64,000 bases of DNA from Bacillota bacterium (GCA_036733985.1 DAIMZM010000001.1:36-64035), one strand, 5' to 3'. Counted from the first letter of the stretch, positions 19,710 to 35,483 are shown. Notes: generated by a model from the letters alone, not told the origin. Program-made: numbers and translations.

Positions 19710-19879
19710 AACAGATCCCCCGGCACTAAAATAATTATCAGATTAAACAGTATTGAACATGGATTTGCGCGATTGGGAATTTTAATCTTTTTCAACACAC
19801 ATTTCAGTATTCCTTTAAATTTTAGGAAAAAATTAAAAAATTTTAAAATAAATTGTCGGTTCCCAGAAACAGGCCGCAG
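19710..19879. promoter_or_regulatory. strongly AT-rich intergenic region (A/T runs, likely UP-element/curved DNA) upstream of the hydantoinase cluster
   Basis: Base composition contrast with the flanking GC-rich coding sequence. Confidence 0.4.
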
Positions 19880-19911
19880 ACATAACAAAACGGGGCCGCA
19901 CTTGGGCCCCG
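19880..19911 (-). terminator. terminator of the M23-domain gene (CGGGGCC-GCACTT-GGGCCCCG then TTTTGTTATG)
   Basis: Hairpin plus T-tract on minus strand. Confidence 0.6.
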
Positions 19912-19959
19912 TAACGAACCAGGTATGCGCAACGCCGGCCAAAGGGTTGGGCGCTGCCT

Positions 19960-19987
19960 GCCGGTTATTTCAATAAAACCGGCTTTT
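19960..19987. other. AT-rich hairpin GCCGGTTATTTCAATAAAACCGGC followed by TTTT on the plus strand; orphan terminator-like structure
   Basis: No upstream plus-strand gene; may terminate an sRNA or act bidirectionally. Confidence 0.35.
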
Positions 19988-19997
19988 CACTTGCGCT

Positions 19998-21568: not shown

Positions 21569-21734
21569 ACGCCCTCCGAATTTCCAGACATATGATAGAA
21601 TATGGCGGAGATTGCCGGTGGTGCATGGCCAGAGTTCTTTACCGGTTTACAGGAAACTGGGCTTGGACGGCGAATAGTATTTTTATGGAAAAGTTATTAG
21701 TGATAACAAATTGGGTTAAATAAAGGAGCAAACT

Positions 21735-22607
21735 ATGAGCGATTATATCATCCTGACCGACTCCTCCTGCGATCTTCCGGCCGAGTTGGCGGAAGAGCTG
21801 GGGCTGGAAGTCCTGCCCCTGGCTTTTGTCATCGACGGCCACACGTACCGGAACCTGCTGGACGGCAGCGAGATCGGCTTCCATGACTATTATGATCTGC
21901 TCAGGGCCGGCAAAACCGGCAGCACATCGGCTGTGAATATCGGCGCTTTCCTGGAGGCCATGCGTCCCCAGCTGGAGGCGGGTAAGGATCTGCTTTACCT
22001 GGGCTTTTCCAGCGGCCTTTCTGCCACTTTCAGCGCCGGCGCCACAGCCGCGGAGCAGCTCAGGGAAGAATTCCCGGAGCGGAAAGTCTATGCGGTGGAT
22101 ACCCTTTGCGCTTCCCTGGGCCAGGGCCTGCTGGTCTGGCACGCGGTTCAGCAGCAGCGCCAGGGCAAATCCATTGAGGAAGTCCGGGATTTCGTCGAGG
22201 AAAACAAGCTGCATCTTTGCCACTGGTTCACCGTGGATGATCTGATGCATCTGAAACGGGGAGGCCGCATTTCTTCCAGCACCGCGCTGCTGGGATCCGC
22301 CCTGAATATCAAGCCGGTGATGCATATGGACAACGAAGGCCTGCTGAAGCCGGTGGATAAGGAAAGGGGCCGGAAAAAAGCCCTGAAGGCCCTGGCCGAC
22401 CGCTTGCGGGATACCGCTATCGGCGCTGCTGCCCAGACGGTCTTCATCAGCCATGGCGACTGCCGGGAGGAGGCGGAATACCTGGCGGATGTGATCCGGG
22501 AGCAAAGCGGCGTCAGCCGCTTCGTCATCAACTATGTGGGCCCGGTGATCGGCACCCATGCGGGCCCGGGCGTGGTGGCCCTGTTCTTCCTGGGTACGGA
22601 ACGCTAA
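21735..22607 (+). CDS. DegV family fatty-acid-binding protein
   Basis: DegV/EDD fold sequence (ILTDSSCDLP, HxGPG C-terminus). Confidence 0.9.
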   Translation: MSDYIILTDSSCDLPAELAEELGLEVLPLAFVIDGHTYRNLLDGSEIGFHDYYDLLRAGKTGSTSAVNIGAFLEAMRPQLEAGKDLLYLGFSSGLSATFSAGATAAEQLREEFPERKVYAVDTLCASLGQGLLVWHAVQQQRQGKSIEEVRDFVEENKLHLCHWFTVDDLMHLKRGGRISSSTALLGSALNIKPVMHMDNEGLLKPVDKERGRKKALKALADRLRDTAIGAAAQTVFISHGDCREEAEYLADVIREQSGVSRFVINYVGPVIGTHAGPGVVALFFLGTER

Positions 22608-22658
22608 CAGGCGCCAGGCCCGCCCGCTGTTCCCCCGCCCCATCCCCTGCCCGAAATT

Positions 22659-22692
22659 AAAGCCTTGCGCTTAACAGCGCAAGGCTTTTTTC
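22659..22692 (+). terminator. terminator after the DegV gene (AAGCCTTGCGC-TTAACA-GCGCAAGGCTT then TTTTT); the stop codon of the convergent minus-strand gene sits in its loop
   Basis: Perfect 11-bp stem with T-tract. Confidence 0.75.
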
Positions 22693-23096
22693 CGCCCTTT
22701 TCCCCCGGCCGCCCCGCTTCTGCCGTATTTGCGGCGGCAGATTAAGAAAAGCGAACCGCAGAGCATAAAGGGCAGGCCAAAGACCAGAGCCATGTCCAAA
22801 TCTTTAAGGCCGCCGTTTATCAAATGAAAGATTGCCATACCCATACCGCCAATGATTTGCAGGATACCGCCGGTCTTTTCGTTGAATAGGGCAATCACCC
22901 ATCCCGCAATAGCCATGCCTAATAACGGGAGAAAGGGCAACAGCTCCGTATCAATGCCGTTTTGGATGATGCCGGGCAGGCCCTCGCCGACCAAAAACAG
23001 CAAGAAAAACCCGGAGGCGAAAAAGCCGGTCAGCCGCCCGGTCCATCTTAAAATCAGCCCGATACGCTTTCCGGATTCCTCAGCTTGATTTGCCAT
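22671..23096 (-). CDS. hypothetical membrane protein (4 TM, basic C-tail)
   Basis: Hydrophobic segments; GC-rich codon usage like the core genome. Confidence 0.6.
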   Translation of the reverse strand: MANQAEESGKRIGLILRWTGRLTGFFASGFFLLFLVGEGLPGIIQNGIDTELLPFLPLLGMAIAGWVIALFNEKTGGILQIIGGMGMAIFHLINGGLKDLDMALVFGLPFMLCGSLFLICRRKYGRSGAAGGKGRKKALRC

Positions 23097-23252
23097 GCCA
23101 ACCGCCTCATTTATAATAAGCCTCTAATCTTTATTTTAACGGTTTTGCTTGCCTTGTCAAGTTTCCCGCGCCGGTACCCTGCTCCATCTTTGATGGAGGA
23201 TCAAACCCATGGGGCCCTATCTGTTTTTTCACATTGTGGAGCATTTTCAGCC

Positions 23253-23480
23253 TCATTCAATGGGAACATGGTTTAAATGGGTTGATGTTCCTGATTTTTC
23301 AGGGGAATGTTCTTTTGTGTCCCGTACGTTTTCGTTAATGCTTCTGAGAATCTTCTTACCCATATCTTTTATCTGTGCCGACGTTTTCTCCGGCAGATGC
23401 TCAAACAGCTTCTCCGCCATATTCAGTTTTAAACCAATAATCCTGCCTATGCGTTCTTCATCCATTATACTCGCCTCCAA
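23253..23480 (-). CDS. small hypothetical protein (70-75 aa, helical, charged, no Cys, no TM)
   Basis: Overlaps the 3' end of the ATPase gene (translational coupling); low-GC codon usage matching the islet; start may be the internal MDEERIG (23465). Confidence 0.5.
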   Translation of the reverse strand: MEASIMDEERIGRIIGLKLNMAEKLFEHLPEKTSAQIKDMGKKILRSINENVRDTKEHSPEKSGTSTHLNHVPIE

Positions 23481-24633
23481 AACGGATTTTCAGCATTCCA
23501 TCCTCGAACGCCGCTTTTTTTATGGAACGGCTGAGAAGTGTCCGCGGCAGGGTAATGTTCCTTTTAACAGCTCCGGCCTTAACAATCAGTTCGTCACCCT
23601 TTTGATTCAGGGCAAGGTCTTTTTTCTCCGCAAAAGGAATCGTAAGGGAAAGGATATAATCGTCCCCGTCCTTATCCACCTGCTGTGTTCTGCCGTTATA
23701 GTCGATATCCGCCGGATTGCGGTCCTGAAATATCTCTTCGGCCATTCTGCCCAGCATCGTCCATCCGACCACCTCCGTCTCAAAAAGAGGCGCATAATAA
23801 ATCGGGATAGGCGAGAAACTTTCGACGATATCCTTTTTATATTTCCGCTGGATATCCTTCCAGCCCTTAAAATAATCGTCTGTGATGCTTTCCGGGAATA
23901 CGCGATTGACAACTACGGCGTCCACATTAAAATCATAGATATTGAGATAGGTAAAACTGCGTTGCGCCTCCTTTATAACCATTTTTTCAGGATTAACCAC
24001 AATCCGAATGCTTGTGGTGTTTCTATCCGAAAATATCGTCCGCATTTCATCCAGTTCATAGTATATGTGATCAATCTCATCCATCACCTGACCGGACGGC
24101 ATCGGAATTCCAGCCAATGCCCCAATGACAGGGCCGGCAACTTTTACGGCTTTCTTTTTGATCGGGAAGAGCTTTTCCATCCACCACCGGAGCATTTCAG
24201 GGAAACTTAAGAGCGCAAGCGTTTCGCCTGTCGGCGCGCAGTCGATGATGATTACGTCAAACCTGCCTTCTTTATAGTATTTCAGGATGCGCAGCAAGCT
24301 CAGAAGGTCCTGCATGCCGGGGAAAACTGTCAGTTCCTCTGTTGTTATATCTTTTACCGCCTTTGCCGTAAAAAGTTCAGTGAGATATTTCTGAACCTGC
24401 CCCCAGCCTTTTTCTACCTCATGGGTCGTATCGATCTCCTGGGCCCAAAGATTTTCTTTTATTTCCATCAGCTCGTTCGTTAACTTCATGTCAAAGGAAT
24501 CCCCCAGACTGTGGGCTGCATCCGTACTGATAACCAGCGTTTTTAATCCCCGACCGGCACTCTTCACTGCGGTGGCGGCCGCAACACTTGTTTTGCCGAC
24601 TCCGCCTTTTCCGGTATAAATGATAATCCTCAT
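23458..24633 (-). CDS. ArsA/Get3-family P-loop ATPase with C-terminal HSP20/CS-like beta-sandwich domain
   Basis: GKGGVGKTS deviant Walker A, DCAPTGET switch motif, single ATPase unit, no ArsA metalloid Cys triad; about 90-aa C-terminal domain resembling the ArsA-associated HSP20-like fold. Confidence 0.8.
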   Translation of the reverse strand: MRIIIYTGKGGVGKTSVAAATAVKSAGRGLKTLVISTDAAHSLGDSFDMKLTNELMEIKENLWAQEIDTTHEVEKGWGQVQKYLTELFTAKAVKDITTEELTVFPGMQDLLSLLRILKYYKEGRFDVIIIDCAPTGETLALLSFPEMLRWWMEKLFPIKKKAVKVAGPVIGALAGIPMPSGQVMDEIDHIYYELDEMRTIFSDRNTTSIRIVVNPEKMVIKEAQRSFTYLNIYDFNVDAVVVNRVFPESITDDYFKGWKDIQRKYKKDIVESFSPIPIYYAPLFETEVVGWTMLGRMAEEIFQDRNPADIDYNGRTQQVDKDGDDYILSLTIPFAEKKDLALNQKGDELIVKAGAVKRNITLPRTLLSRSIKKAAFEDGMLKIRFGGEYNG

Positions 24634-24711
24634 AAAAAGCCTCCTTCCGCATTTAATTCATAGTACGAATACTACTAAATACGAAGTAATTGACGAAAAA
24701 ATTTGCGGCTG

Positions 24712-25194
24712 TTAGTCGATTTCAATTTTCCGTATGGCATTTTCATGCTGTTGATTAGCCGCCTGCGCTACGGATTCCTCAGTTAAAATATTTAGGATTT
24801 TGCCTGCGATCTGAGCCAAAAAGCGTATTTCTTCCTGCGTCAGCTTATCAGCCACTTTGTTCATATATTCTGCAACAAGCTCTTTAAGTCTTTTGATCTC
24901 TTCAATTCCTTTTTCTGAAAGCCTCAGAACAACGATTCTCCTGTCTTGTTCACTTCTTTCCCTGATGATATAGCCGTTCTTAACAAGCCTGTTGATAATG
25001 CCCGTCGCCGTACTCAAGGGTGAATGGATATATTCCGCAAGCTCTGTCATAATGATTTCTTTTTTCTTTTCAATCAGCAGCAGAGCGAATATCTCTGTTT
25101 TAGAAAATTTCAGGTCAAAGCTAAGCCATTCTTCCGGGAAAAATAATTTTTTCAGGTTATTAAGCAATAGGTCTGTAACATATTCAGTGTCCAT
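24712..25194 (-). CDS. MarR family transcriptional regulator
   Basis: Winged-helix MarR core (TELAEYIHSPLSTATGIINRLVKNGYIIRERSEQDRR). Confidence 0.85.
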   Translation of the reverse strand: MDTEYVTDLLLNNLKKLFFPEEWLSFDLKFSKTEIFALLLIEKKKEIIMTELAEYIHSPLSTATGIINRLVKNGYIIRERSEQDRRIVVLRLSEKGIEEIKRLKELVAEYMNKVADKLTQEEIRFLAQIAGKILNILTEESVAQAANQQHENAIRKIEID

Positions 25195-25243
25195 AAAACA
25201 TTTTACCTCTCAAATAATTCTCTGAACGTACTATACGGAGCTA

Positions 25244-25272
25244 ATTATATTCGTCTTAACCATTTTTGTCAA
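25244..25272 (-). promoter_or_regulatory. consensus sigma-A promoter of the islet operon (TTGACA-17-TATAAT)
   Basis: Perfect hexamers with 17-bp spacer, about 45 nt upstream of the marR ATG. Confidence 0.6.
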
Positions 25273-25282
25273 TAGTAATAGA

Positions 25283-25323
25283 AAGGGTATTATCCCTCAA
25301 AAATATCAAGAGATAATACCCTT
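25283..25323 (-). other. AT-rich inverted repeat AAGGGTATTATC-N17-GATAATACCCTT just upstream of the islet promoter; ppdK terminator and/or operator
   Basis: 12-bp arms read directly, 76 nt downstream of the ppdK stop. Confidence 0.45.
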
Positions 25324-25398
25324 ACTTTATTTATGCTTATCCCCTAAAGCCTTGGTATATAAAAACTTTTTACCTCTGGCCGTCAGGGGGCGGACAAG

Positions 25399-28026
25399 CT
25401 AGGCCTCTTTAATAGCGGCCTGGGCGGCTGCCAGCCGGGCGATGGGCACCCGGAAGGGGGAGCAGGACACATACTGCAGGCCGATCTGATGGCAGAACTC
25501 CACAGAAGCCGGATCGCCGCCATGCTCGCCGCAGATGCCCAGATGGATATCAGGCCGGGTGGCTTTGCCCTTTTGAACCGCCATCTGCATCAGCTGGCCC
25601 ACGCCCTTGAAGTCCACCCGGGCAAAGGGATCGCTCTCGTAAATCTGCTTCTTGTAGTAATCATCCAGGAAAGCCCCGGCGTCGTCCCGGGAGAAGCCGA
25701 AGGTCATCTGGGTCAGATCGTTGGTGCCGAAGGAGAAGAACTCGGCCACCTCCGCGATCTCATCAGCCAGCAGGGCGGCCCGGGGGATCTCGATCATAGT
25801 GCCCACCAGGTAGTTCAGCTCAATACCGGCCTCGGCAATGATCTGGTCGGCCACCCTTTTCACGATATCCGCCACATATTTCAGCTCTTTCACATCGCCC
25901 ACCAGGGGGATCATGATCTCAGGCTGGATATTGTAGCCCTTGTTCTGCTTGACCTGAAGGGCGGCTTCAATAATGGCCCTGGTCTGCATCTCGGCGATCT
26001 CCGGATAGGTGACGGTAAGGCGGCAGCCCCGGTGGCCCATCATGGGGTTGAACTCATGCAGCGCCGCGGACCTGGCTTTTACCTGCTCAAAGCTGATGCC
26101 CATATCTTTGGCCAAGTCGGCGATGTCCTCGTCTTCCTTGGGCAGGAATTCATGCAGCGGCGGGTCCAGCAGGCGCACGGTGACCGGCCGTTCCGCCATG
26201 GCTTCGTAAATGCCGATGAAATCTTCCCGCTGCATGGGCAGGAGCTGATCCAGGGCCTGGCGGCGGGCAGCCTCGTTATCCGCCAGGATCATCCGGCGCA
26301 TCACCGGAATCCGGTCCTCGTTGAAGAACATATGCTCGGTGCGGGTCAGGCCAATGCCCTCGGCGCCGAATTCCACAGCCCGGGCCGCGTCCTTTGGCGT
26401 ATCCGCATTGGTGCGTACATGCAGCTTGCGGTACTGGTCGGCCCAGCCCATGAAGCGGCCGAAATTGCCGCTAATGGAAGCGGGCGCGGTTTTGATATCC
26501 CCGGCGTAAATCTTGCCGGTGGTGCCGTCCAGGGACATATAATCGCCCTCATGGAAGATATGCCCGCCCAGCTCCAGGGTTTTAGCCTCTTCATCGATCC
26601 TGGCTTCGCCGCAGCCGGCCACGCAGCAGGTGCCCATGCCCCTGGCCACCACGGCGGCATGGGAAGTACGGCCGCCCCGGGCGGTAAGGATGCCCTCGGC
26701 AGCCACCATACCTTCGATGTCCTCAGGCGAGGTCTCCGTCCGGGCCAGGATCACCCGTTCTTTGCGCTCATTATGGGCGATCTTGGCGTCCTCGGCGGTG
26801 AAATAGACGCGGCCGGCGGCAGAGCCGGGGCTGGCGGGCAAGGCCTGGCCGATGGGCTGGGCTTTGGCCAGTTCAGCCGGGTCAAAGGTGGGATGCAGCA
26901 GCTGATCCAGCTGCTTGGGATCCACTTTCATCAGGGCTTCCTTCTCCGTGATCATGCCTTCGTCTACCAGATCCACGGCCACCTGCAAGGCGGCGGCGGC
27001 GGTGCGCTTGCCGTTCCGGGTCTGAAGGAAATAGAGCTTCTTATCCTCAATGGTAAACTCCATATCCTGCATATCTTTATAATGGTTTTCCAGCCTGGTG
27101 GCGATTTCCACAAACTGCTGGTAAACCTCGGGCATATCCTGTTCCAGCACGGAGATGGGCTTGGGCGTGCGGATGCCGGCCACCACGTCCTCGCCCTGGG
27201 CATTGATCAGGTATTCGCCGAAGAGCTTCTTCTCGCCGGTGGCGGGATCCCGGGTGAAAGCCACGCCGGTGCCGGAGGTATCGCCCATATTGCCGAAAAC
27301 CATCATCTGCACATTGACGGCGGTGCCCCAATCGCCGGGGATATCGTTCATGCGGCGGTAGACGATGGCCCGGTCGTTATTCCAGGAGCGGAACACGGCT
27401 TTCACCGCGCCCAGCAGCTGTTCATGGGGATCGGCGGGGAAATCCTGGCCGATCTTGGCCTTGTATTCCGCCTTGAACTGCTCGGCCAGCTCCTGCAAAT
27501 CGGCGGCGGTGAGCTCGGTATCAAACTCCACGCCCCGGGCTTCCTTCATCTGGCCGATCAGCTGCTCGAAATACTTCTTGCCCACTTCCATGACCACGTC
27601 GCTGTACATCTGGATGAAGCGGCGGTAAGAATCGTAAGCAAAGCGGGGGTTGCCGGTCCTTTTGGCAAAAGCCGCCACCGCCTCGTCGTTCAGGCCTAAG
27701 TTAAGGATGGTATCCATCATGCCGGGCATGGAAGCCCGGGAGCCGGAACGCACCGATACCAGCAGCGGGTTTTCAATATCGCCAAACTTTTTACCGGAGA
27801 TCTTTTCCAGTTCAGCCATGGCCTCGTCGATTTGAGCGATGATCTCAGCGCTGATCGTCTCGCCATTTGCGTAATAGTCGTTGCAAGCTTCCGTCGTCAC
27901 CGTAAAGCCCTGAGGAATGGGCATGCCCAGGCGGGTCATTTCCGCCAGGTTCGCGCCCTTACCACCCAGCAGGTTCTTCATGCCGGCATCGCCTTCACGG
28001 AAATGATACACGAATTTTTTGCTCAT
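25399..28026 (-). CDS. ppdK: pyruvate, phosphate dikinase
   Basis: MSKKFVYHFREGDAGMKNLLGGKGANLAEM N-terminus, PEP-utilising His domain (GGRTSHAAVVARG), full length 875 aa. Confidence 0.95.
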   Translation of the reverse strand: MSKKFVYHFREGDAGMKNLLGGKGANLAEMTRLGMPIPQGFTVTTEACNDYYANGETISAEIIAQIDEAMAELEKISGKKFGDIENPLLVSVRSGSRASMPGMMDTILNLGLNDEAVAAFAKRTGNPRFAYDSYRRFIQMYSDVVMEVGKKYFEQLIGQMKEARGVEFDTELTAADLQELAEQFKAEYKAKIGQDFPADPHEQLLGAVKAVFRSWNNDRAIVYRRMNDIPGDWGTAVNVQMMVFGNMGDTSGTGVAFTRDPATGEKKLFGEYLINAQGEDVVAGIRTPKPISVLEQDMPEVYQQFVEIATRLENHYKDMQDMEFTIEDKKLYFLQTRNGKRTAAAALQVAVDLVDEGMITEKEALMKVDPKQLDQLLHPTFDPAELAKAQPIGQALPASPGSAAGRVYFTAEDAKIAHNERKERVILARTETSPEDIEGMVAAEGILTARGGRTSHAAVVARGMGTCCVAGCGEARIDEEAKTLELGGHIFHEGDYMSLDGTTGKIYAGDIKTAPASISGNFGRFMGWADQYRKLHVRTNADTPKDAARAVEFGAEGIGLTRTEHMFFNEDRIPVMRRMILADNEAARRQALDQLLPMQREDFIGIYEAMAERPVTVRLLDPPLHEFLPKEDEDIADLAKDMGISFEQVKARSAALHEFNPMMGHRGCRLTVTYPEIAEMQTRAIIEAALQVKQNKGYNIQPEIMIPLVGDVKELKYVADIVKRVADQIIAEAGIELNYLVGTMIEIPRAALLADEIAEVAEFFSFGTNDLTQMTFGFSRDDAGAFLDDYYKKQIYESDPFARVDFKGVGQLMQMAVQKGKATRPDIHLGICGEHGGDPASVEFCHQIGLQYVSCSPFRVPIARLAAAQAAIKEA

Positions 28027-31109: not shown

Positions 31110-31222
31110 TGAACCTCCCCGTTCCTTTAATAATTAAACCGCCGCTGCCGGAAGCGTTCCGGTGAAGCGCAGATGACTAAGCAGTCTTTCGTATTAAATA
31201 GTCTTTCCATTTTACCGAGAGT

Positions 31223-31251
31223 ATTATATATAAAAGCCCTGTGAAAGTCAA
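31223..31251 (-). promoter_or_regulatory. glyQS promoter (TTGACT-17-TATAAT) with about 105-nt leader
   Basis: Hexamers read on minus strand; leader lacks the T-box GGUGGNACCGCG motif. Confidence 0.55.
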
Positions 31252-31326
31252 ATAAAACGCCAATATTAAGCAATGTTGCGAATTTTTATAACGTATGCAG
31301 AAAAACGTAAACGCCTGGGGCTCCTC

Positions 31327-32964
31327 TTAAGCCTCCAAGGCCGCCTGCAGCCGGGCCCGGCTGCGGCTCTCCCCCAGGGCCTTTGAAACCTGCCAGAGAT
31401 CCGGCGAATTCTGCCTGCCCGTGATGGCCACCCGGATGGTATTGCTCACCTCCACAATGCTGCCCTGGTACTGCTCCGGGTTTTTCTTGTACAGCTTGGG
31501 CTGGGGGGCGTAATGCTGCTCCGTGCAGATCCGCTTCACCTTGGCGAACCAGGCCTCATTATCGTCCCGGAAATCCACCAGCTCCAGATAGCGGCCCAGC
31601 ACTTCCCGCCGCTGTCTTCCTTCCAGGGGAAAATCATCCTCCCGGCGGAAGCGCTGGTCATAGAAGAAGGAGAGAAAATCCGCCGCCTGCTTCCAGGCCA
31701 CCAGATCTTTCCGGGGCCGGTCGCCGCCTTTGCCAATGGCCAGGGCCGCCAGGGCATAGTCCCGGTCCTGAGCCAGCAAGCCGGCAAATTCCGGATCATA
31801 CTGGCGGCACCAGGCTAAAAGGCCGTCATAAACCGCTGCCGCATCCATAGCGGCCAGCACCGCCTTGCTGATATCGTTCAGCTTATCCAGATCAAAGAGA
31901 GCGCCGCTATTGCTCATCTTTTCCGTGGTAAAGGGGAAATCCTCAGCCAAGGCGGCTGGGTTATCCAGCCGCCACTGCTCGAAATTGGAATTGAGCACGG
32001 TCAGCAAATATTCCCGCACGGCCCCGGGCAAATAGCCTTCGGCCTGATAATATTCCAGGGCCAGCTCCGGGTCTTTGCGCTTGGAGAGCTTCCGCCGCAC
32101 TTCCCCGTCCAGCTTCATCAGCTGGGCCGTATGGCAGTACAGGGGCCGCCGCCAGCCCAGGGTATCGAAAAGCTGCACATGCAGGGGCAGGGTAGCCAGC
32201 CATTCCTCCCCCCGCACCACATGGGTGGTGCGCATATAGTGGTCATCCACCACATGGGCGAAATGATAGGTGGGCACGCCGTCGCTTTTCAGCAGCACAA
32301 AGTCCTGATAGTTCTCCTGCACCTGCAGCTCGCCCCGGATGGCGTCCGCCACCGCCACCGTGTTATTGATATCCCCCTGGCTACGGAAGCGCAGCACAAA
32401 GCCGCGGCCGGCCCGGAGATTTTCCGTGACCTGCTCGAAGGTCAGATCCCGGCAGGCCGCCCATGGCCCATAATAGCCGAAATTTTGCTTAGCCCCGATC
32501 TGCCGCTCACGCATGGCGGCCAGGGCTTCCTCCGGGCAGAAGCAGGGATAGGCCTGGCCCAGCCTGACCAGATGCTTGGCGACAGCCTGATAGATCCCTA
32601 CCCGCCGCCGCTGGCGGTAAGGGCCGTAAGCGCCCTTTTCCCCCGCCAGGGTCACGCCTTCGTCAAAGCGGATGCCGAAGAAATCCATGGCCTCAATGAT
32701 GACCCGGGCGGCGCCGGGCACTTCCCGTTTGGCGTCCGTATCCTCAATGCGCAGGAAAAACACGCCGTTGCTCTGATGGGCCAGCCGCTCGCCGATCAGG
32801 GCGTTATAAAGATTGCCCAGATGCACAAAGCCGGTGGGGCTGGGGCCGATCCGGGTAACCTTGGCTCCGGGGCGCAGCTGACGGGGGGGGTACAGGGCCT
32901 GGTAATCCTCTGGGGTTTGGTCGATCTCCGGGAACAGCAGCTCTGCCAAAGCGTCATAATTCAT
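31327..32964 (-). CDS. gltX: glutamate--tRNA ligase
   Basis: Class I HIGH-like (HLGN) and KLSKR motifs; PTYHFAHVVDD...RGEEW GluRS signature. Confidence 0.85.
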   Translation of the reverse strand: MNYDALAELLFPEIDQTPEDYQALYPPRQLRPGAKVTRIGPSPTGFVHLGNLYNALIGERLAHQSNGVFFLRIEDTDAKREVPGAARVIIEAMDFFGIRFDEGVTLAGEKGAYGPYRQRRRVGIYQAVAKHLVRLGQAYPCFCPEEALAAMRERQIGAKQNFGYYGPWAACRDLTFEQVTENLRAGRGFVLRFRSQGDINNTVAVADAIRGELQVQENYQDFVLLKSDGVPTYHFAHVVDDHYMRTTHVVRGEEWLATLPLHVQLFDTLGWRRPLYCHTAQLMKLDGEVRRKLSKRKDPELALEYYQAEGYLPGAVREYLLTVLNSNFEQWRLDNPAALAEDFPFTTEKMSNSGALFDLDKLNDISKAVLAAMDAAAVYDGLLAWCRQYDPEFAGLLAQDRDYALAALAIGKGGDRPRKDLVAWKQAADFLSFFYDQRFRREDDFPLEGRQRREVLGRYLELVDFRDDNEAWFAKVKRICTEQHYAPQPKLYKKNPEQYQGSIVEVSNTIRVAITGRQNSPDLWQVSKALGESRSRARLQAALEA

Positions 32965-33024
32965 GAAAACACCTCATATGGTTTATCGTTCTCCATCAAG
33001 GTATTATACCAATATCCCCCAGGT

Positions 33025-33053
33025 TTGACAATACGGTACATTTATTGTAAAAT
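33025..33053 (+). promoter_or_regulatory. promoter for asp23-yloV (TTGACA-17-TAAAAT)
   Basis: Hexamers plus a second extended -10 (TGTGTTAAAAT) nearer the gene. Confidence 0.5.
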
Positions 33054-33152
33054 GATACGACACGATTTCTTCTTTTGCGCATAAACAGGCGGTTTAAATC
33101 AAAGCCTTAATGTGTTAAAATCAATTATAAATCAATTAAGGGAGGCTTAGGC

Positions 33153-33533: not shown

Positions 33534-35234
33534 ATGAGTAAACAAATCGAGCGGATGGACGGGGCACGGCTTGCTGCCTTTTTCAGGCATGGCTCCGACT
33601 ATCTGGGCCAGCATAAAGAAGCAATCAACGCCCTGAACGTCTTTCCGGTGCCGGACGGCGACACCGGCATCAATATGTATCTGACCGTCAGCTCCGCCGG
33701 GGCCAAGCTGCCTCAAGACCCGGCGGGCATCCCGGTGGGGAAAATCGCCGCTGATTTTGCCCAGGGCACGCTGATGGGGGCCCGGGGCAATAGCGGCGTG
33801 ATCCTCTCCCAGATTTTCCGGGGCTTGGCTTCCTCCCTGGCCGGTAAAGACAGCGCCGGCCCGGCCGAACTGGCCGCCGCCCTGCAAAAGGGCTCGGATA
33901 TCGCTTATAAATCCGTGATGAAGCCGGTGGAAGGCACCATCCTCACGGTTTACCGGGAATTTGCCGCCGCCGCCCTGAGAGCCGCGGAGAAAAAGGCGGA
34001 TATCCTGGAAATGCTGGGCCAGGCCCTGAAAGCCGGGGAAAAAGCCCTGGCCAATACCCCCAACCTGCTGCCGGTGCTCAAAGAAGCCGGCGTGGTGGAC
34101 GCCGGGGGCAAGGGCCTGCTTTGCTTTATGGAAGGCGGCCTGGCCGGCCTGGCTGAGGGCAGGCTGCCCATACGGGTTCCCACAGCGGCCCCGGCTCCGG
34201 TAACGCCGGCCCCCGCTGCCAAGATCCCGCCCCAGGAGGCAGCGGCTGAGGAGGCTATCGCTTTTACCTACTGCACCCAGCTCCTGGTCAAGGGAGAACA
34301 TCTGCCCATTGACCAAATCCGGGAACGGCTTTCCCAGGATCCCCCCGGCGACAGCCTGCTGGTGGTGGGGGACGAAAGCCTGATCAAAATCCATTTCCAC
34401 AACAACCATCCCGGCCAGGTGCTGGAATACTGCGCGGGCTTCGGCAGCCTGCATGATATCATCATCGATAATATGCGGGATCAGCATCATCAGACCATCA
34501 TCGACGCGGCCGAGGCTGAGGAAGCGGCAACAGCCCAGGCCGCCCCGGCTTGGACGTTACCGGCGGCAACCCCGGTCCGCTGCGGCGTGGTGGCGGTTTG
34601 CGTAGGCGAGGGCCTGGCCGGCATCTACGAAGACCTGGGCGCCCAGGTGATCTCCGGCGGCCAGACCATGAACCCCTCTGCCGAAGACCTGGTACAGGCC
34701 GTGGAGGAATGCCCCGGGGCGGAAGTGGTGATCCTGCCCAATAACAGCAATATCATCCTTACCGCCGGCCAGGTGCAATACCTGACGGAGAAAAAGGTTT
34801 GCATCGTGCCCAGTAAATTCGTGACCCAGGGCCTCACCGCCATGCTCCGCTTCAACCCGGAGCATGACGCGGAGCAAAACGCCGCGGCCATGGAAAAAGC
34901 CGGGCAAAAGGTGCTGAACGGCGAGCTGACCTATGCGGTGCGGGATACCAGGTATAATGGCTTCGAAATCAAATCCGGGGATATCCTGGGGCTGTTCCAG
35001 GGCGAGATCGTGGCCACCGGCCAAGACCTGGGGCAAACCTTCCAACAGCTGATCGCCAAAATGGTGGGAGAAGCTGAGGAGCCGGAGCTGCTCTCCCTTT
35101 TCTACGGCCACGACGTGGACGCGGAACAGGCGGAAGCCCTGGCCGGCCAGGCGGCTGAAGCTTGCCCGGATCTGGATGTGGAGACCCATTTCGGCGGGCA
35201 GCCCCTGTACTATTTCCTCATCGCGGTTGAATAA
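33534..35234 (+). CDS. yloV: DAK2 domain fusion protein YloV
   Basis: N-terminal DAK2 domain (PDGDTGINM), C-terminal DegV-like half; upstream of recG as in many Firmicutes. Confidence 0.9.
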   Translation: MSKQIERMDGARLAAFFRHGSDYLGQHKEAINALNVFPVPDGDTGINMYLTVSSAGAKLPQDPAGIPVGKIAADFAQGTLMGARGNSGVILSQIFRGLASSLAGKDSAGPAELAAALQKGSDIAYKSVMKPVEGTILTVYREFAAAALRAAEKKADILEMLGQALKAGEKALANTPNLLPVLKEAGVVDAGGKGLLCFMEGGLAGLAEGRLPIRVPTAAPAPVTPAPAAKIPPQEAAAEEAIAFTYCTQLLVKGEHLPIDQIRERLSQDPPGDSLLVVGDESLIKIHFHNNHPGQVLEYCAGFGSLHDIIIDNMRDQHHQTIIDAAEAEEAATAQAAPAWTLPAATPVRCGVVAVCVGEGLAGIYEDLGAQVISGGQTMNPSAEDLVQAVEECPGAEVVILPNNSNIILTAGQVQYLTEKKVCIVPSKFVTQGLTAMLRFNPEHDAEQNAAAMEKAGQKVLNGELTYAVRDTRYNGFEIKSGDILGLFQGEIVATGQDLGQTFQQLIAKMVGEAEEPELLSLFYGHDVDAEQAEALAGQAAEACPDLDVETHFGGQPLYYFLIAVE

Positions 35235-35236
35235 CA

Positions 35237-35266
35237 GCGGCGGCCCGCCTGGGCCGCCCTTTTTTA
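35237..35266 (+). terminator. terminator after yloV (GGCGGCC-CGCCTG-GGCCGCC then CTTTTTT)
   Basis: GC stem plus T6. Confidence 0.7.
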
Positions 35267-35305
35267 TGTCGATTTTTGTTGAATTTATTTAAAAGCTTTA
35301 AAACC

Positions 35306-35329
35306 GTTCTTCTTTTATAAAAGAAGAAC
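35306..35329. repeat. perfect AT-rich palindrome GTTCTTCTTTT-ATAA-AAGAAGAAC
   Basis: 10-bp arms read directly in a 250-bp AT-rich intergenic region. Confidence 0.6.
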
Positions 35330-35394
35330 CAAGAAAATTTTAAAGTAATGATAAAGGGTACATAAACAACCTGCTATTATTTAAAGTTCTTTTG

Positions 35395-35424
35395 CTGCTT
35401 TTCTTACAAGAAAAGCAGGGTTTT
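35395..35424 (+). other. perfect hairpin CTGCTTTTCTT-ACA-AGAAAAGCAG followed by GGTTTT; terminator-like, possible 3' end of a small RNA
   Basis: 11-bp stem plus T-run, 70 nt downstream of the first palindrome and 60 nt upstream of recG. Confidence 0.4.
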
Positions 35425-35483
35425 AAAATCAGCTTATAAAATAAATAAACCATACATTAAGCTGCGGTTAAGAGGTTAGCGGT

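Follow-up and report, generated by a model that had tools for sequence, protein, structure and literature searches.

A low-GC operon for a Get3d-like ATPase after ppdK in an uncultured Bacillota lineage, very probably acquired horizontally

The low-GC stretch between positions 23097 and 25398 of the window (the whole 64,000-nt stretch of Bacillota DNA analysed here) is very probably a horizontally acquired, self-contained operon, inserted right after ppdK, with a MarR-controlled chaperone as its proposed cargo. The insertion would have taken place in an uncultured Bacillota lineage of ~59% GC, probably after its split from the lineage of the closest relative found (L118). The imported unit, below called the cassette, would have comprised a sigma-A promoter, an operator-like palindrome, and genes for a MarR-family regulator, a Get3d-type ATPase of the ArsA family and a translationally coupled 70-aa protein. 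The coordinates of these and the adjoining features are collected in Table 1.

Table 1. Features of the islet and its surroundings, in window coordinates
Feature	Position	Strand	Evidence or remark
Perfect 13-bp hairpin AAAGCCTTGCGCT-GTTA-AGCGCAAGGCTTT	22659..22688		Repeat scan
Segment in the window, missing from the syntenic site of L118	22608..25403		2796 bp vs 234 bp
DUF7670 membrane protein, 141 aa, 3-4 hydrophobic segments	22671..23096	-	PF24709 DUF7670, 5.7e-10
156-bp spacer, cassette to DUF7670	23097..23252		GC 0.46
70-aa soluble protein, DUF3926-like, C-terminal VPIE	23253..23465	-	Position after the ATPase (ArsA), hhalign
Single-domain Get3/ArsA-fold ATPase with C-terminal HSP20-like (alpha-crystallin) domain, 391 aa	23458..24633	-	PF02374, PF17886
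MarR-family transcriptional regulator, 160 aa, first cassette gene	24712..25194	-	Pfam PF01047
Operator-like imperfect palindrome ATAGTAC-N7-GAATTAT, between -10 and RBS	25214..25234	-	Position
Perfect sigma-70/sigma-A consensus promoter of the cassette, TTGACA-17-TATAAT	25244..25272	-	Promoter scan
Inverted repeat, 18-bp hairpin just upstream of -35	25280..25326		Arms 25280-25297 and 25309-25326
72-bp AT-rich junction, ppdK stop to cassette	25327..25398		GC 0.43; no counterpart in L118 or L083

Composition and borders of the islet

A preliminary description of this DNA had called the islet AT-richer than both flanks and had named a GC equal to that of the flanks as counter-evidence to acquisition. 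The computed GC is 0.433 (43.3%), compared with 0.589 (58.9%) for the whole window and 0.581 and 0.595 for the 10-kb flanks, which bears out the former and is the opposite of the latter. When all 2302-bp windows of the 64 kb were scanned (mean GC 0.589, sd 0.033), the global minimum of 0.432 started at 23101 (z ~ -4.7). A dinucleotide signature normalised for base composition gave 99 for the islet against 60 ± 17.5, which puts it high, at rank 4 among 247 windows, without setting it apart. The three genes are intact and all on the minus strand, as described, with GC3 values of 0.43 for the small gene, 0.54 for the ATPase gene and 0.43 for the MarR gene, against 0.737 ± 0.056 (minimum 0.58) for the 52 other ORFs in the window. 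The A/T-ending codons ascribed to these genes are therefore real in relative terms, accounting for about half of their codons compared with about a quarter elsewhere.

Gene calls and the repeat scan also agree with the described absence of integrase, transposase and flanking direct repeats. No remnant of a recombinase, integrase, transposase or IS was found in the neighbouring genes or the collinear block, no direct repeats of the kind expected for att sites or a target duplication bracket 22608-25403 or 23253-25326, and tRNA genes are absent from the entire 64-kb window. The neighbours of the islet are DUF7670, DegV, ZIP, M23, ppdK and glyS/glyQ. Overall, the islet resembles horizontally acquired genomic islets and islands in its GC and GC3 deviation, empty site, phylogenetic incongruence and close copies on mobile elements. 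It differs from typical islands in measuring only 2.3-2.8 kb, in lacking an integrase or transposase, a tRNA target and flanking direct repeats, and in holding no more than one operon and, possibly, an orphan gene.

The 12-bp inverted repeat reported at the ppdK-side border is real but longer than stated, with arms of 18 nt that are 89% complementary; as minus-strand RNA it folds into an 18-bp hairpin, after which comes UUUCUAUU. The 137-nt spacer between ppdK and the MarR gene folds at -48.6 kcal/mol (z = -6.0). The hairpin is kept in the nearest copy of the cassette found elsewhere (L083; GGGTATTATCTCTTGATG-ATTTGAGGGATAATACC), inside the upstream region of the cassette, and homology with that copy begins at window position 25321, within the outer arm of the repeat. 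In place of this hairpin, L118 has its own GC-rich ppdK terminator. The structure is a terminator or insulator, or a regulatory site, and not a terminal repeat; it probably terminates or insulates ppdK read-through, and this cassette-borne hairpin would now occupy the place of the ppdK terminator. The repeat was also considered as the end of a transposon or other mobile element and rejected in that role, as both arms lie at the ppdK-side border and form one hairpin, and the other end of the islet carries no matching arm.

Within the junction on the ppdK side, positions 25362-25377 are a 16-nt near-copy of the MarR RBS region (25195-25210). On the opposite side, homology to every other cassette copy ends exactly at 23253, and the promoter scan placed a promoter-like TTGACA-16-TAAAAT for DUF7670 in the spacer beyond (23133-23160, minus strand). 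The perfect 13-bp hairpin lies between DegV and DUF7670, which are convergent, and serves as a terminator in both directions.

The three genes of the operon

The product of the first gene matches the winged-helix MarR domain (PF01047; 51.5 bits, cut-off 24.6) and reached no NCBIfam equivalog. Its promoter, described earlier as the islet's own perfect sigma-A consensus, is indeed so: it lies 50 nt upstream of the MarR start, is the sole match in the 64 kb and was found in 0 of 100 shuffles. The -35 (TATTGACAA) and -10 elements keep the same distance to the MarR ATG across the cassette family. About 18 upstream regions share a family-wide palindrome, ATATTTCG-N5-CGAAATATT, whose window version is degenerate; from its place in the sequence, it is a putative MarR binding site. 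The arrangement resembles that of autoregulated MarR-family operons (marRAB, ohrR-type), with the regulator first and a palindrome over -10 to +1 of a strong promoter, but the cassette regulator would control a chaperone-like ATPase and a small protein, not efflux or detoxification.

The second gene encodes an ATPase matching PF02374 (ArsA_ATPase, 3.9e-98), PF17886 (ArsA_HSP20, 6.2e-23; 80.6 bits, cut-off 22.5) and TIGR00345 (GET3_arsA_TRC40, 275.6, cut-off 135). Its P-loop, the deviant Walker A motif GKGGVGKT, is intact at residues 8-15. In the AF2 model, the ATPase core mostly has pLDDT values of 70-96, falling to ~43-66 at residues 71-110 and 131-180, and strands across residues 317-386 make up a beta-sandwich. 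The best Foldseek matches were NosGet3d (8egk/3igf), archaeal Get3 (3ug6/3zq6) and AtGet3d (8elf), with 8egk, 3igf and 8elf aligning over ~390 columns at ~21-22% identity. The score for the NosAFP equivalog (NF050088) is 162.7 bits, below the cut-off of 325, and together with the 21-22% identity in the structural alignment this does not make the protein an orthologue of cyanobacterial NosAFP/All4481. The cassette ATPase is a Get3d-like, 'Group 6' bacterial Get3 homologue and not an arsenic pump. It shares with Get3d/Group 6 proteins (Nostoc All4481, PDB 3IGF/8EGK; Arabidopsis Get3d, 8ELF) a single Get3/ArsA-fold domain followed by a C-terminal HSP20-like beta-sandwich. It differs from them in its low identity, its intact Walker A lysine, its non-photosynthetic host and its fixed operon with a MarR gene and a DUF3926-like protein, a context that goes unmentioned in the consulted passages of PMC10248533 and PMC6593721. 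Both papers describe the combination of Get3 with an alpha-crystallin domain and give its function as unknown, and PMC6593721 already includes members from Firmicutes.

Source names such as 'arsenite-transporting ATPase' on homologues, together with the Pfam ArsA_ATPase match, would make the islet an arsenic-resistance determinant, a reading we find hardly credible. ArsA of the ArsAB arsenite pump (E. coli R773; PDB 1F48) does belong to the same P-loop ATPase superfamily and to PF02374. However, the cassette protein has one domain in 391 aa, not the two homologous halves of the duplicated ~580-aa ArsA, and, with 100.2 bits, falls short of the 650 required by the ArsA equivalog model (TIGR04291). 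It contains a single cysteine (in DCAPTG) and lacks the metalloid-binding cysteine triad; arsB, acr3, arsC, arsD and arsR are absent from the neighbourhood in the window and from related loci with listed called genes; and the closest structures are those of Get3d and archaeal Get3. The arsenite-pump labels carried by these Bacillota homologues in the homologue database are unsupported by the present evidence.

The ATG of the third gene overlaps the ATPase stop by 8 nt (ATGGATGA). Its product had no match in Pfam, NCBIfam or PADLOC and no TM segment. An ORF of 63-79 aa occupies the equivalent place 3' of the ATPase gene in nearly all loci, and a C-terminal [IV]-x-[IVL]-[EDKQ], similar to the IxI motif of small heat shock proteins (sHSPs), was present in all 44 distinct homologues of the small protein. 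With hhalign, a profile of 20 homologues aligned from end to end with a DUF3926-annotated protein of B. thuringiensis (94% probability, E 1e-7), which holds the equivalent operon position and ends in IIIE. The Pfam DUF3926 model itself was unmatched by the small-protein homologues at E<=1; the clostridial small proteins fall below it. The corresponding Bacillus cereus-group locus (for example, B. thuringiensis YB6, NZ_CP151870 95247-97171) has MarR, ArsA family ATPase and DUF3926 in equal order, the small gene again overlapping the ATPase stop, and its ATPase is 66% identical (aa) to that of the window; the Bacillus trio differs in adjoining housekeeping genes (gatCAB, metNIQ). Close cassette copies have a MarR gene of 152-166 aa directly upstream of the ATPase gene, and tblastn found MarR 5' of the ATPase in nearly all related loci whose contig extends that far. 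The trio of MarR, Get3d-like ATPase and DUF3926-like protein is a conserved, widespread Bacillota operon.

Empty site, related copies and possible routes of acquisition

L118 (ppdK 92% aa, 81-84% nt) is collinear with the window from 32979 to 15466, or ~17.5 kb, in the order glyQ-glyS-ppdK-(234 bp)-DegV-ZIP-M23-HTH/cupin-hydantoinase, and the three cassette genes are absent. By blastn, the collinear alignment stops at window 25404 and picks up again at 22607. The check suggested in the preliminary description was to see whether ppdK and the upstream membrane-protein gene are adjacent in close relatives, as an empty site: L118 does have an empty site, with ppdK followed by DegV, but it also lacks the membrane-protein gene. 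Because DUF7670 is missing too, the indel relative to L118 is 2.8 kb (22608-25403), not 2.3 kb. The membrane-protein gene is thus not 'core', as it had been called, but a near-orphan, whose only detectable homologue is 99% identical and from the same species, and it was not found next to the cassette in other loci. DUF7670 is a lineage-specific accessory gene that forms part of the indel. It lies in the indel without sharing the composition of the islet (GC 0.53, GC3 0.64), and one event therefore cannot be distinguished from two. Intergenic DNA does not align between L118 and the window, which hides exact breakpoints and any target duplication or att-like site. More distant relatives (L119-L122; ppdK 83-85%) have different genes and no cassette after ppdK and hence say nothing about the direction of the event; synteny breaks after ppdK in all of the lineages examined.

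The nearest relatives of the cassette (ATPase 85-93% aa) have unrelated genomic surroundings, and some of them are located inside mobile elements. The nearest copy, L083 (cassette 86.5% nt identical), also stands just after ppdK, in an unrelated host: the ATPase is 92% identical to that of the window and the ppdK fragment only 74%, where true relatives reach 90-94%, and the best ppdK matches of L083 (L123-L125) lack the cassette. In L126 and L127 (ATPase 86% aa), large serine recombinases are present on both sides, in L126 with a Mob_Pre relaxase as well; L085-L088 have two IS3 copies, TrbL and relaxase fragments as neighbours, to which L085 adds an IstB/IS21 helper gene. Copies with ATPases of 85-86% aa identity occupy three other contexts; L084, L085 and L126 are mutually ~90-91.5% nt identical in three different contexts. 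These copies borne by mobile elements belong to another sub-lineage, only ~75% nt identical to the window cassette. Among 29 metagenome loci with ATPases of 50-80% aa identity, the GC of the ATPase gene is near that of the flanks in most; in low-GC Clostridia, operon GC is that of the flanks, and none of the low-GC loci has ppdK near the cassette. On the preferred reading, the trio is native to low-GC Clostridia and Bacilli and a sub-lineage of ~44-47% GC moves between genomes, sometimes as cargo of serine-recombinase, Mob_Pre relaxase or IS3 elements, the window holding the cargo alone.

The empty site in L118 and the unrelated contexts of the nearest cassette relatives support the horizontal acquisition suggested earlier. 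Its qualification as 'recent' stands in part: the composition appears without amelioration, but no donor was found and the nearest copy is no closer than L083, and for that reason 'recent' follows from composition only. At third positions on the window branch, 15 AT>GC and 12 GC>AT changes were counted, a comparison of low power with 27 polarised sites.

As an alternative, the cassette could be ancestral at this locus, old or native in the ancestor of the window and L118, lost together with DUF7670 in L118 and kept at low GC for function. In the unalignable intergenic DNA the direction of the indel is not directly visible, the L083 cassette likewise lies directly after ppdK, and identities at four-fold sites are similar for the ATPase gene (window/L083, 71.5%) and ppdK (window/L118, 75.7%), suggesting that the cassette lineage is not very young. 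Yet the host of L083 is no relative (ppdK C-terminus 74% aa against 90-94% in the clade), and the cassette is missing from L123-L125 and, after ppdK, from L119-L122, so that an ancestral cassette would require several independent losses. The GC3 of 0.43-0.54 against 0.74, the absence of a GC-ward substitution bias and the close copies riding mobile elements elsewhere also argue against ancestry, and we consider it improbable. Less probable still is an assembly or binning artefact in which a low-GC contig was joined into a high-GC MAG. The window does come from a metagenome-assembled contig, and a related contig, L002, is demonstrably mosaic: within DegV it changes cleanly between the window and L118 types of sequence, in a 28-bp stretch identical in both. 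However, an independent assembly, L001 (GCA_964607365.1), is identical over the cassette, DUF7670 and DegV and shows 3 differences over 1.8 kb of ppdK (99.96% by blastn); by reproducing the islet, it confirms both junctions. L002, at 2.7x coverage, spans both junctions at 100% identity with its switch 270 bp outside the indel, and L083 provides a similar islet after ppdK in a separate assembly.

For horizontal acquisition, which we prefer, the candidate modes of integration would be recombination, either illegitimate or homology-facilitated, and insertion of a carrier element that later decayed. An integrative or mobilisable element, bounded by serine recombinases or IS copies, may have brought the cassette in as cargo; its mobility genes would then have decayed and left the operon and perhaps DUF7670. 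The serine recombinases and relaxase around L126/L127, the IS3 copies, TrbL and relaxase fragments beside L085-L088, and the short AT-rich junctions that flank the cassette (23097-23252 and 25327-25398) are consistent with such an origin; against it, a recombinase or IS remnant, terminal repeat and target duplication are absent from the window, the junction segments match nothing in the copies on mobile elements, and those copies are of the other sub-lineage, which leaves this route possible but doubtful. We entertain only tentatively that the cell took up naked or conjugated DNA and that the cassette then integrated by illegitimate or ppdK-anchored, homology-facilitated recombination. With ppdK, a conserved gene, as the anchor, it would be understandable that one cassette lineage follows ppdK in two unrelated hosts, and the window and L083 both have the order ppdK-hairpin-cassette; the absence of mobility genes and the synteny break after ppdK point the same way, and the switch in DegV of L002, if real, shows interspecies exchange through flanking homology in this region. 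Nevertheless, L002 may be an assembly chimera at its low coverage, no low-GC locus with ppdK near the cassette was found, and the 3' end of ppdK in the window is clade-typical (94% aa to L118, 74% to L083), so that an imported ppdK tract is not visible. Independently of what the cassette does, this lineage of it might land preferentially in the terminator region downstream of ppdK, although we think this unlikely.

Proposed function of the operon

Judging from the sequences, the operon might encode a MarR-controlled chaperone or targeting module in which the small protein is a partner of the ATPase, a proposal we regard as tentative. MarR would keep the operon repressed as long as it senses no stress ligand or oxidant; once derepressed, the ATPase would handle hydrophobic segments in the manner of Get3, either as a chaperone or as a targeting factor. 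Its partner would be the small protein, which might dock its C-terminal I/V-x-I/V motif onto the alpha-crystallin-like domain. In sHSPs, the C-terminal I-x-I/V motif anchors in the beta4/beta8 groove of the alpha-crystallin domain. Similarly, a flexible K/E/S/P-rich linker leads to the [IV]-x-[IVL] end of the small protein, and the ATPase carries an alpha-crystallin-like domain; unlike in sHSPs, the motif and the domain would sit on two separate polypeptides. In two AF2 models of the ATPase fused to the small protein, computed with unpaired MSAs, the small protein and its tail had pLDDT values below 50 (tail 27-43) and convincing docking was not seen. One fusion had a single beta-bridge at the second-to-last residue (I460) and the other none, the MSA rows over the small protein being partly misaligned in the second fusion.

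A bolder version, which we think unlikely, is that the trio is a dedicated mobile, stress-switched chaperone or membrane-targeting module, whose 70-aa protein is an obligate partner that plugs its I/V-x-I/V motif into the alpha-crystallin-like domain. If true, it would for the first time open a way to the function of bacterial Get3d-type proteins outside phototrophs, and it would split an sHSP-style contact over two polypeptides. The gene-transfer event itself is routine; as a clean and well-controlled example of a small islet without an integrase and with the site left empty in a sister species, it is useful mainly for annotating this MAG lineage. In summary, bacterial homologues that combine Get3 with an alpha-crystallin domain are widespread, and in Bacillota they are set in a fixed three-gene operon that has repeatedly been exchanged between genomes, sometimes on mobile elements, and that offers testable hypotheses about a regulator, an operator and a partner protein.

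Composition of the islet and its empty counterpart

The horizontal acquisition proposed in the preliminary description is supported by the GC and GC3 anomaly of the islet, by an empty site in the closest collinear relative recovered, and by the unrelated contexts in which close copies of the cassette are found. The GC content of 23097-25398 is 43.3%, compared with 58.9% for the whole window and 58.1% and 59.5% for the 10-kb flanks, confirming that the segment is AT-richer than both sides. It is the global minimum of all 2302-bp windows, the lowest of which (0.432, start 23101) lies ~4.7 sd under the mean (0.589, sd 0.033). Codon usage is also unlike that of the neighbouring genes, as had been claimed, with GC3 of 0.43 for MarR, 0.54 for ArsA and 0.43 for the small ORF versus 0.737±0.056 (minimum 0.58) in the 52 other ORFs of the window. 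When normalised for composition, the dinucleotide signature of the islet ranks high (4th of 247 windows) yet is neither unique nor discriminating, so the anomaly lies mainly in base composition and codon choice. None of five further GC dips is an additional islet; all fall in ordinary intergenic or promoter DNA. As described before, no integrase or transposase is present at the islet, nor in its gene neighbourhood, and no direct repeats bracketing it were found; there is no tRNA anywhere in the 64-kb window, no Rfam family at E<=1 in 22400-25700 and no relevant match to the PADLOC defence-system models.

Features of the islet and its surroundings in the window
Feature	Position	Strand	Remarks
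MarR-family regulator gene	24712-25194	minus	160 aa, intact
ArsA_ATPase + ArsA_HSP20 gene	23458-24633	minus	391 aa, intact
Small ORF	23253-23465	minus	70 aa, intact; start 23465 set by homologues
DUF7670 membrane gene	22671-23096		GC 0.53, GC3 0.64
Promoter TTGACA-17-TATAAT	25244-25272	minus	Upstream of MarR; sole such site in 64 kb, 0/100 shuffles
Inverted repeat	25280-25297 and 25309-25326		Arms of 18 nt each
Degenerate palindrome ATAGTAC-N7-GAATTAT	25214-25234		Window version of the family palindrome
16-nt direct repeat	25195-25210 and 25362-25377		AAAACATTTTACCTCT / AAAACTTTTTACCTCT, 15/16 identical
Further GC-profile dips (0.35-0.42)	19710-19997, 21569-21734, 31110-31326, 32965-33146, 35190-35483		166-294 bp

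Searching genome contigs with ppdK gave, among the matches listed, relatives of <=73% identity without synteny, and the protein database contained ppdK relatives at 92, 85, 85 and 83%. The 92% relative lies on a 147-kb JGI contig (L118), which is collinear with window 32979-15466 at 81-84% nucleotide identity and has the gene order glyQ-glyS-ppdK-DegV-ZIP-M23-HTH/cupin-hydantoinase, with the three cassette genes absent, i.e. the site between ppdK and DegV is empty. Collinearity over this span is broken at two places only. At the first, 2796 bp of the window (22608-25403) correspond to 234 bp in L118, including its own GC-rich ppdK terminator; the low-GC islet measures 2.3 kb, as originally sized, and the indel against L118 measures 2.8 kb. 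The empty-site spacer also carries a short tandem repeat, GGCGGGCCGTTCACATAA (~2.5 copies, L118:12740-12800), between the ppdK terminator and DegV. The second lies at window 31139-31339, a spacer of just 200 bp between glyQ and the tRNA-synt_1c gene; here L118 has an extra ~5.1 kb (L118:1719-6829) encoding an SLH-domain protein, GIY-YIG, YhhN and an aldehyde dehydrogenase. The DUF7670 membrane gene beside the islet, previously taken as core, is accessory: L118 lacks it as well as the cassette, and it is a near-orphan, with a same-species protein of 99% identity as its sole detectable homologue. Its composition is intermediate and much nearer to host GC than that of the cassette, and it may have arrived with the cassette, arrived separately or been lost in L118.

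An assembly artefact is unlikely, as an independent NCBI MAG (L001) covers both junctions and is identical over the whole cassette, DUF7670 and DegV, with 3 differences in the 1.8 kb of ppdK. A further contig, L002 (ERZ724081 NODE_19539, L002:1-3673), was compared with window 22031-25701 and L118:13144-13436 and proved to be a mosaic, 100% window-type from 25701 to 22336 and then 100% L118-type from the equivalent of window 22307, with a single switch within DegV, inside a 28-bp stretch identical in the window and L118. We therefore rejected L002 as independent support for the DegV side and use it for the islet junctions only. With a coverage of 2.7x, it may have been assembled as a chimera from two species that co-occur, or it may be a genuine recombinant between species; if real, the switch would mean exchange of the locus by flanking homology. 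The difference from L118 may also reflect deletion of the segment there instead of gain in the window lineage. The more distant ppdK relatives (L119-L122, 83-85%) are of no use for polarising the event, having other genes past ppdK. Neither a breakpoint nor a target duplication could be read, because on both the ppdK and the DegV side the intergenic stretches of the window, L118 and L083 (the locus with the nearest cassette copy) are unalignable, with no homology beyond the coding regions. Gain of the cassette after the split from L118 is the favoured reading.

Cassette copies elsewhere and possible routes of arrival

The trio recurs with every close ArsA homologue; MarR has 152-166 aa and ArsA 388-391 aa, and the 70-aa gene overlaps or abuts the ArsA stop. 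The nearest copy, in L083 (ArsA 92% aa), lies directly after a ppdK gene, with an MCP gene on the other side, and that in L084 (86%) is found among beta-lactamase-family, methyltransferase and other genes. The copies in L085-L088 (85%) are accompanied by TrbL (4/4), by relaxase fragments (L085-L087) and, in L085, by two IS3 copies and an IstB/IS21 helper gene, and those in L128/L129 (82%) by ordinary chromosomal genes. In the remaining pair, L126/L127 (86%), the L126 copy lies between large serine recombinase genes, with a Mob_Pre relaxase also present, and the L127 copy has a recombinase downstream. In these two contigs (L126:7600-13000, L127:3011-3880) the bracketing recombinase genes have Mob_Pre relaxase and HTH genes near them, and this copy looks like the cargo of an integrative mobilisable element.

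DNA homology to all these copies stops precisely at the small-gene stop (23253), and its ppdK-ward limit is 25166-25220 in most copies and 25321 in L083, inside the outer arm of the inverted repeat. Two sub-lineages are apparent, one formed by the window and L083 (86.5% nt) and the other by L084, L085 and L126 (~90-91.5% mutually, in three unrelated contexts), with ~74-75% between the groups. A metagenome scan added 29 loci with ArsA of 50-80% identity; MarR lies upstream wherever the contig reaches, with L115, the most divergent at 50% aa in ArsA, as the exception, and ArsA is usually followed by the small ORF. In most of them ArsA-gene GC matches flank GC (e.g. 0.38 vs 0.38/0.36), which marks the operon as native to low-GC Clostridia; the window and L083 cassettes hold 43-47% GC in hosts of 52-60% GC. 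The Bacillus cereus group has the same arrangement, MarR, ArsA (66% aa) and a protein annotated DUF3926. One such locus, in which gatCAB and metNIQ adjoin the trio, is on B. thuringiensis YB6 'plasmid unnamed3' (NZ_CP151870 91809-100972), a record typed as a non-mobilizable 127-kb plasmid that looks less like a typical plasmid than like part of a chromosome or chromid. Phage carriage was rejected, as no cassette relatives were found in viral contigs, and so was plasmid carriage, with 4 matches only, the best being chromosomal-looking Bacillus records.

The vector route may have been a carrier element that later decayed, as cassette copies are borne on mobile elements elsewhere, or recombination after DNA uptake, which fits the lack of any element remnant at the islet. 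Four-fold-site identity of ArsA between the window and L083 (71.5%) is about the same as that of ppdK between the window and L118 (75.7%), and thus no near-identical donor was found. Polarised third positions on the window branch gave 15 AT>GC versus 12 GC>AT changes, with no GC-ward bias in what is an underpowered test; this fits, if weakly, with an evolution of that branch for the most part outside the present high-GC host.

The L083 copy (L083:1-2531, JGI 3300050582, versus window 23253-25733) is likewise immediately downstream of ppdK and is also a low-GC islet (0.36-0.44 versus 0.50-0.57). Its ppdK C-terminus is 74% aa identical to that of the window, compared with 90-94% within the window clade, and tblastx of its right flank against the window and host-relative loci gave no match, so the L083 host is unrelated. 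The best ppdK matches of L083 (L123-L125) have other accessory genes at the site past ppdK, and no imported ppdK tract is visible in the window. Such a double arrival at one relative position suggests either a permissive synteny break past ppdK or a site preference.

Promoter, putative operator and hairpin

The perfect consensus sigma-A promoter reported for the islet is indeed present and unique in the window. The upstream layout is fixed across the cassette family, with a -35 of TATTGACAA, a 17-nt spacer, a -10 of TATwAT, a palindrome (ATATTTCG-N5-CGAAATATT), the RBS and the MarR ATG. Autoregulated MarR operons are laid out in this way, and the palindrome would be bound by MarR, as judged from sequence. 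The inverted repeat is also real and longer than the 12 bp first noted, whereas its assignment as an element border does not hold: both arms form one hairpin, and a mobile-element or transposon end was therefore rejected. Read as minus-strand RNA, it gives an 18-bp hairpin and then UUUCUAUU, and the ppdK-MarR spacer has a folding z of -6.0. The hairpin (25280-25326) is common to the window and L083 and not to the other sub-lineage. Since the L118-type terminator is absent from the window, the hairpin is placed where a ppdK terminator is needed, and we read it as a terminator or insulator. The 16-nt direct repeat has one copy in the MarR RBS region and one just past the ppdK stop, with promoter and hairpin between them, and may be due to chance in AT-rich DNA.

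The ATPase, the small protein and their possible role

The ATPase was considered as an arsenic-pump subunit, and this arsenic-resistance reading was rejected, as the protein is a single domain of 391 aa with one cysteine and there are no nearby ars genes. With the ArsA equivalog model it reaches 100 bits (cut-off 650), and with that of the Get3/TRC40/ArsA subfamily 276 (cut-off 135). Among proteins of solved structure, algal ArsA1 and archaeal Get3 are the best sequence matches, and the AF2 model of the ATPase fits NosGet3d (8EGK/3IGF), archaeal Get3 and Arabidopsis Get3d, C-terminal beta-sandwich included. The ATPase is of the 'Group 6' Get3 + alpha-crystallin architecture, which is recorded in Firmicutes among other phyla and called functionally unknown in PMC6593721, and is described as Get3d in PMC10248533. 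Many homologues (P0003-P0120) carry the source labels 'arsenite-transporting ATPase' or 'arsenic ABC transporter ATPase', which on single-domain Get3d-like proteins are probably a systematic misannotation.

The 70-aa protein is soluble, with two predicted helices and a K/E/S/P-rich tail, and ends in [IV]-x-[IVL]-[EDKQ] in 44/44 distinct homologues. Its family profile aligns end to end with the Bacillus DUF3926-annotated protein (94% probability, E 1e-7), a family of which we found no mention in the literature searched. In small heat-shock proteins, a C-terminal I/V-x-I/V anchor binds the beta4/beta8 groove of alpha-crystallin domains. The end of the 70-aa protein resembles this anchor, and we therefore propose that it would dock on the HSP20-like domain of the ATPase. 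In two AF2 models of ATPase-small fusions, made from unpaired alignments that were partly misaligned (MAFFT), the small protein as a whole is modelled with low confidence, its tail has pLDDT <45, and the docking is not confirmed by either model.

In summary, the acquisition is of a standard kind, that of a small genomic islet lacking mobility genes, and the cargo belongs to a protein family that is known but uncharacterised. Three points appear to be new: the fixed MarR / Get3d-like / DUF3926-like operon with a conserved promoter and putative operator, the IxI terminus shared by all homologues of the small protein, and the evidence that one cassette sub-lineage moves between genomes; no description of these was found in the accessible portions of PMC6593721 and PMC10248533 or in the wider literature searched. 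It is conceivable, albeit somewhat doubtful, that the operon, once derepressed through MarR, provides a chaperone or targeting module acting on hydrophobic segments.
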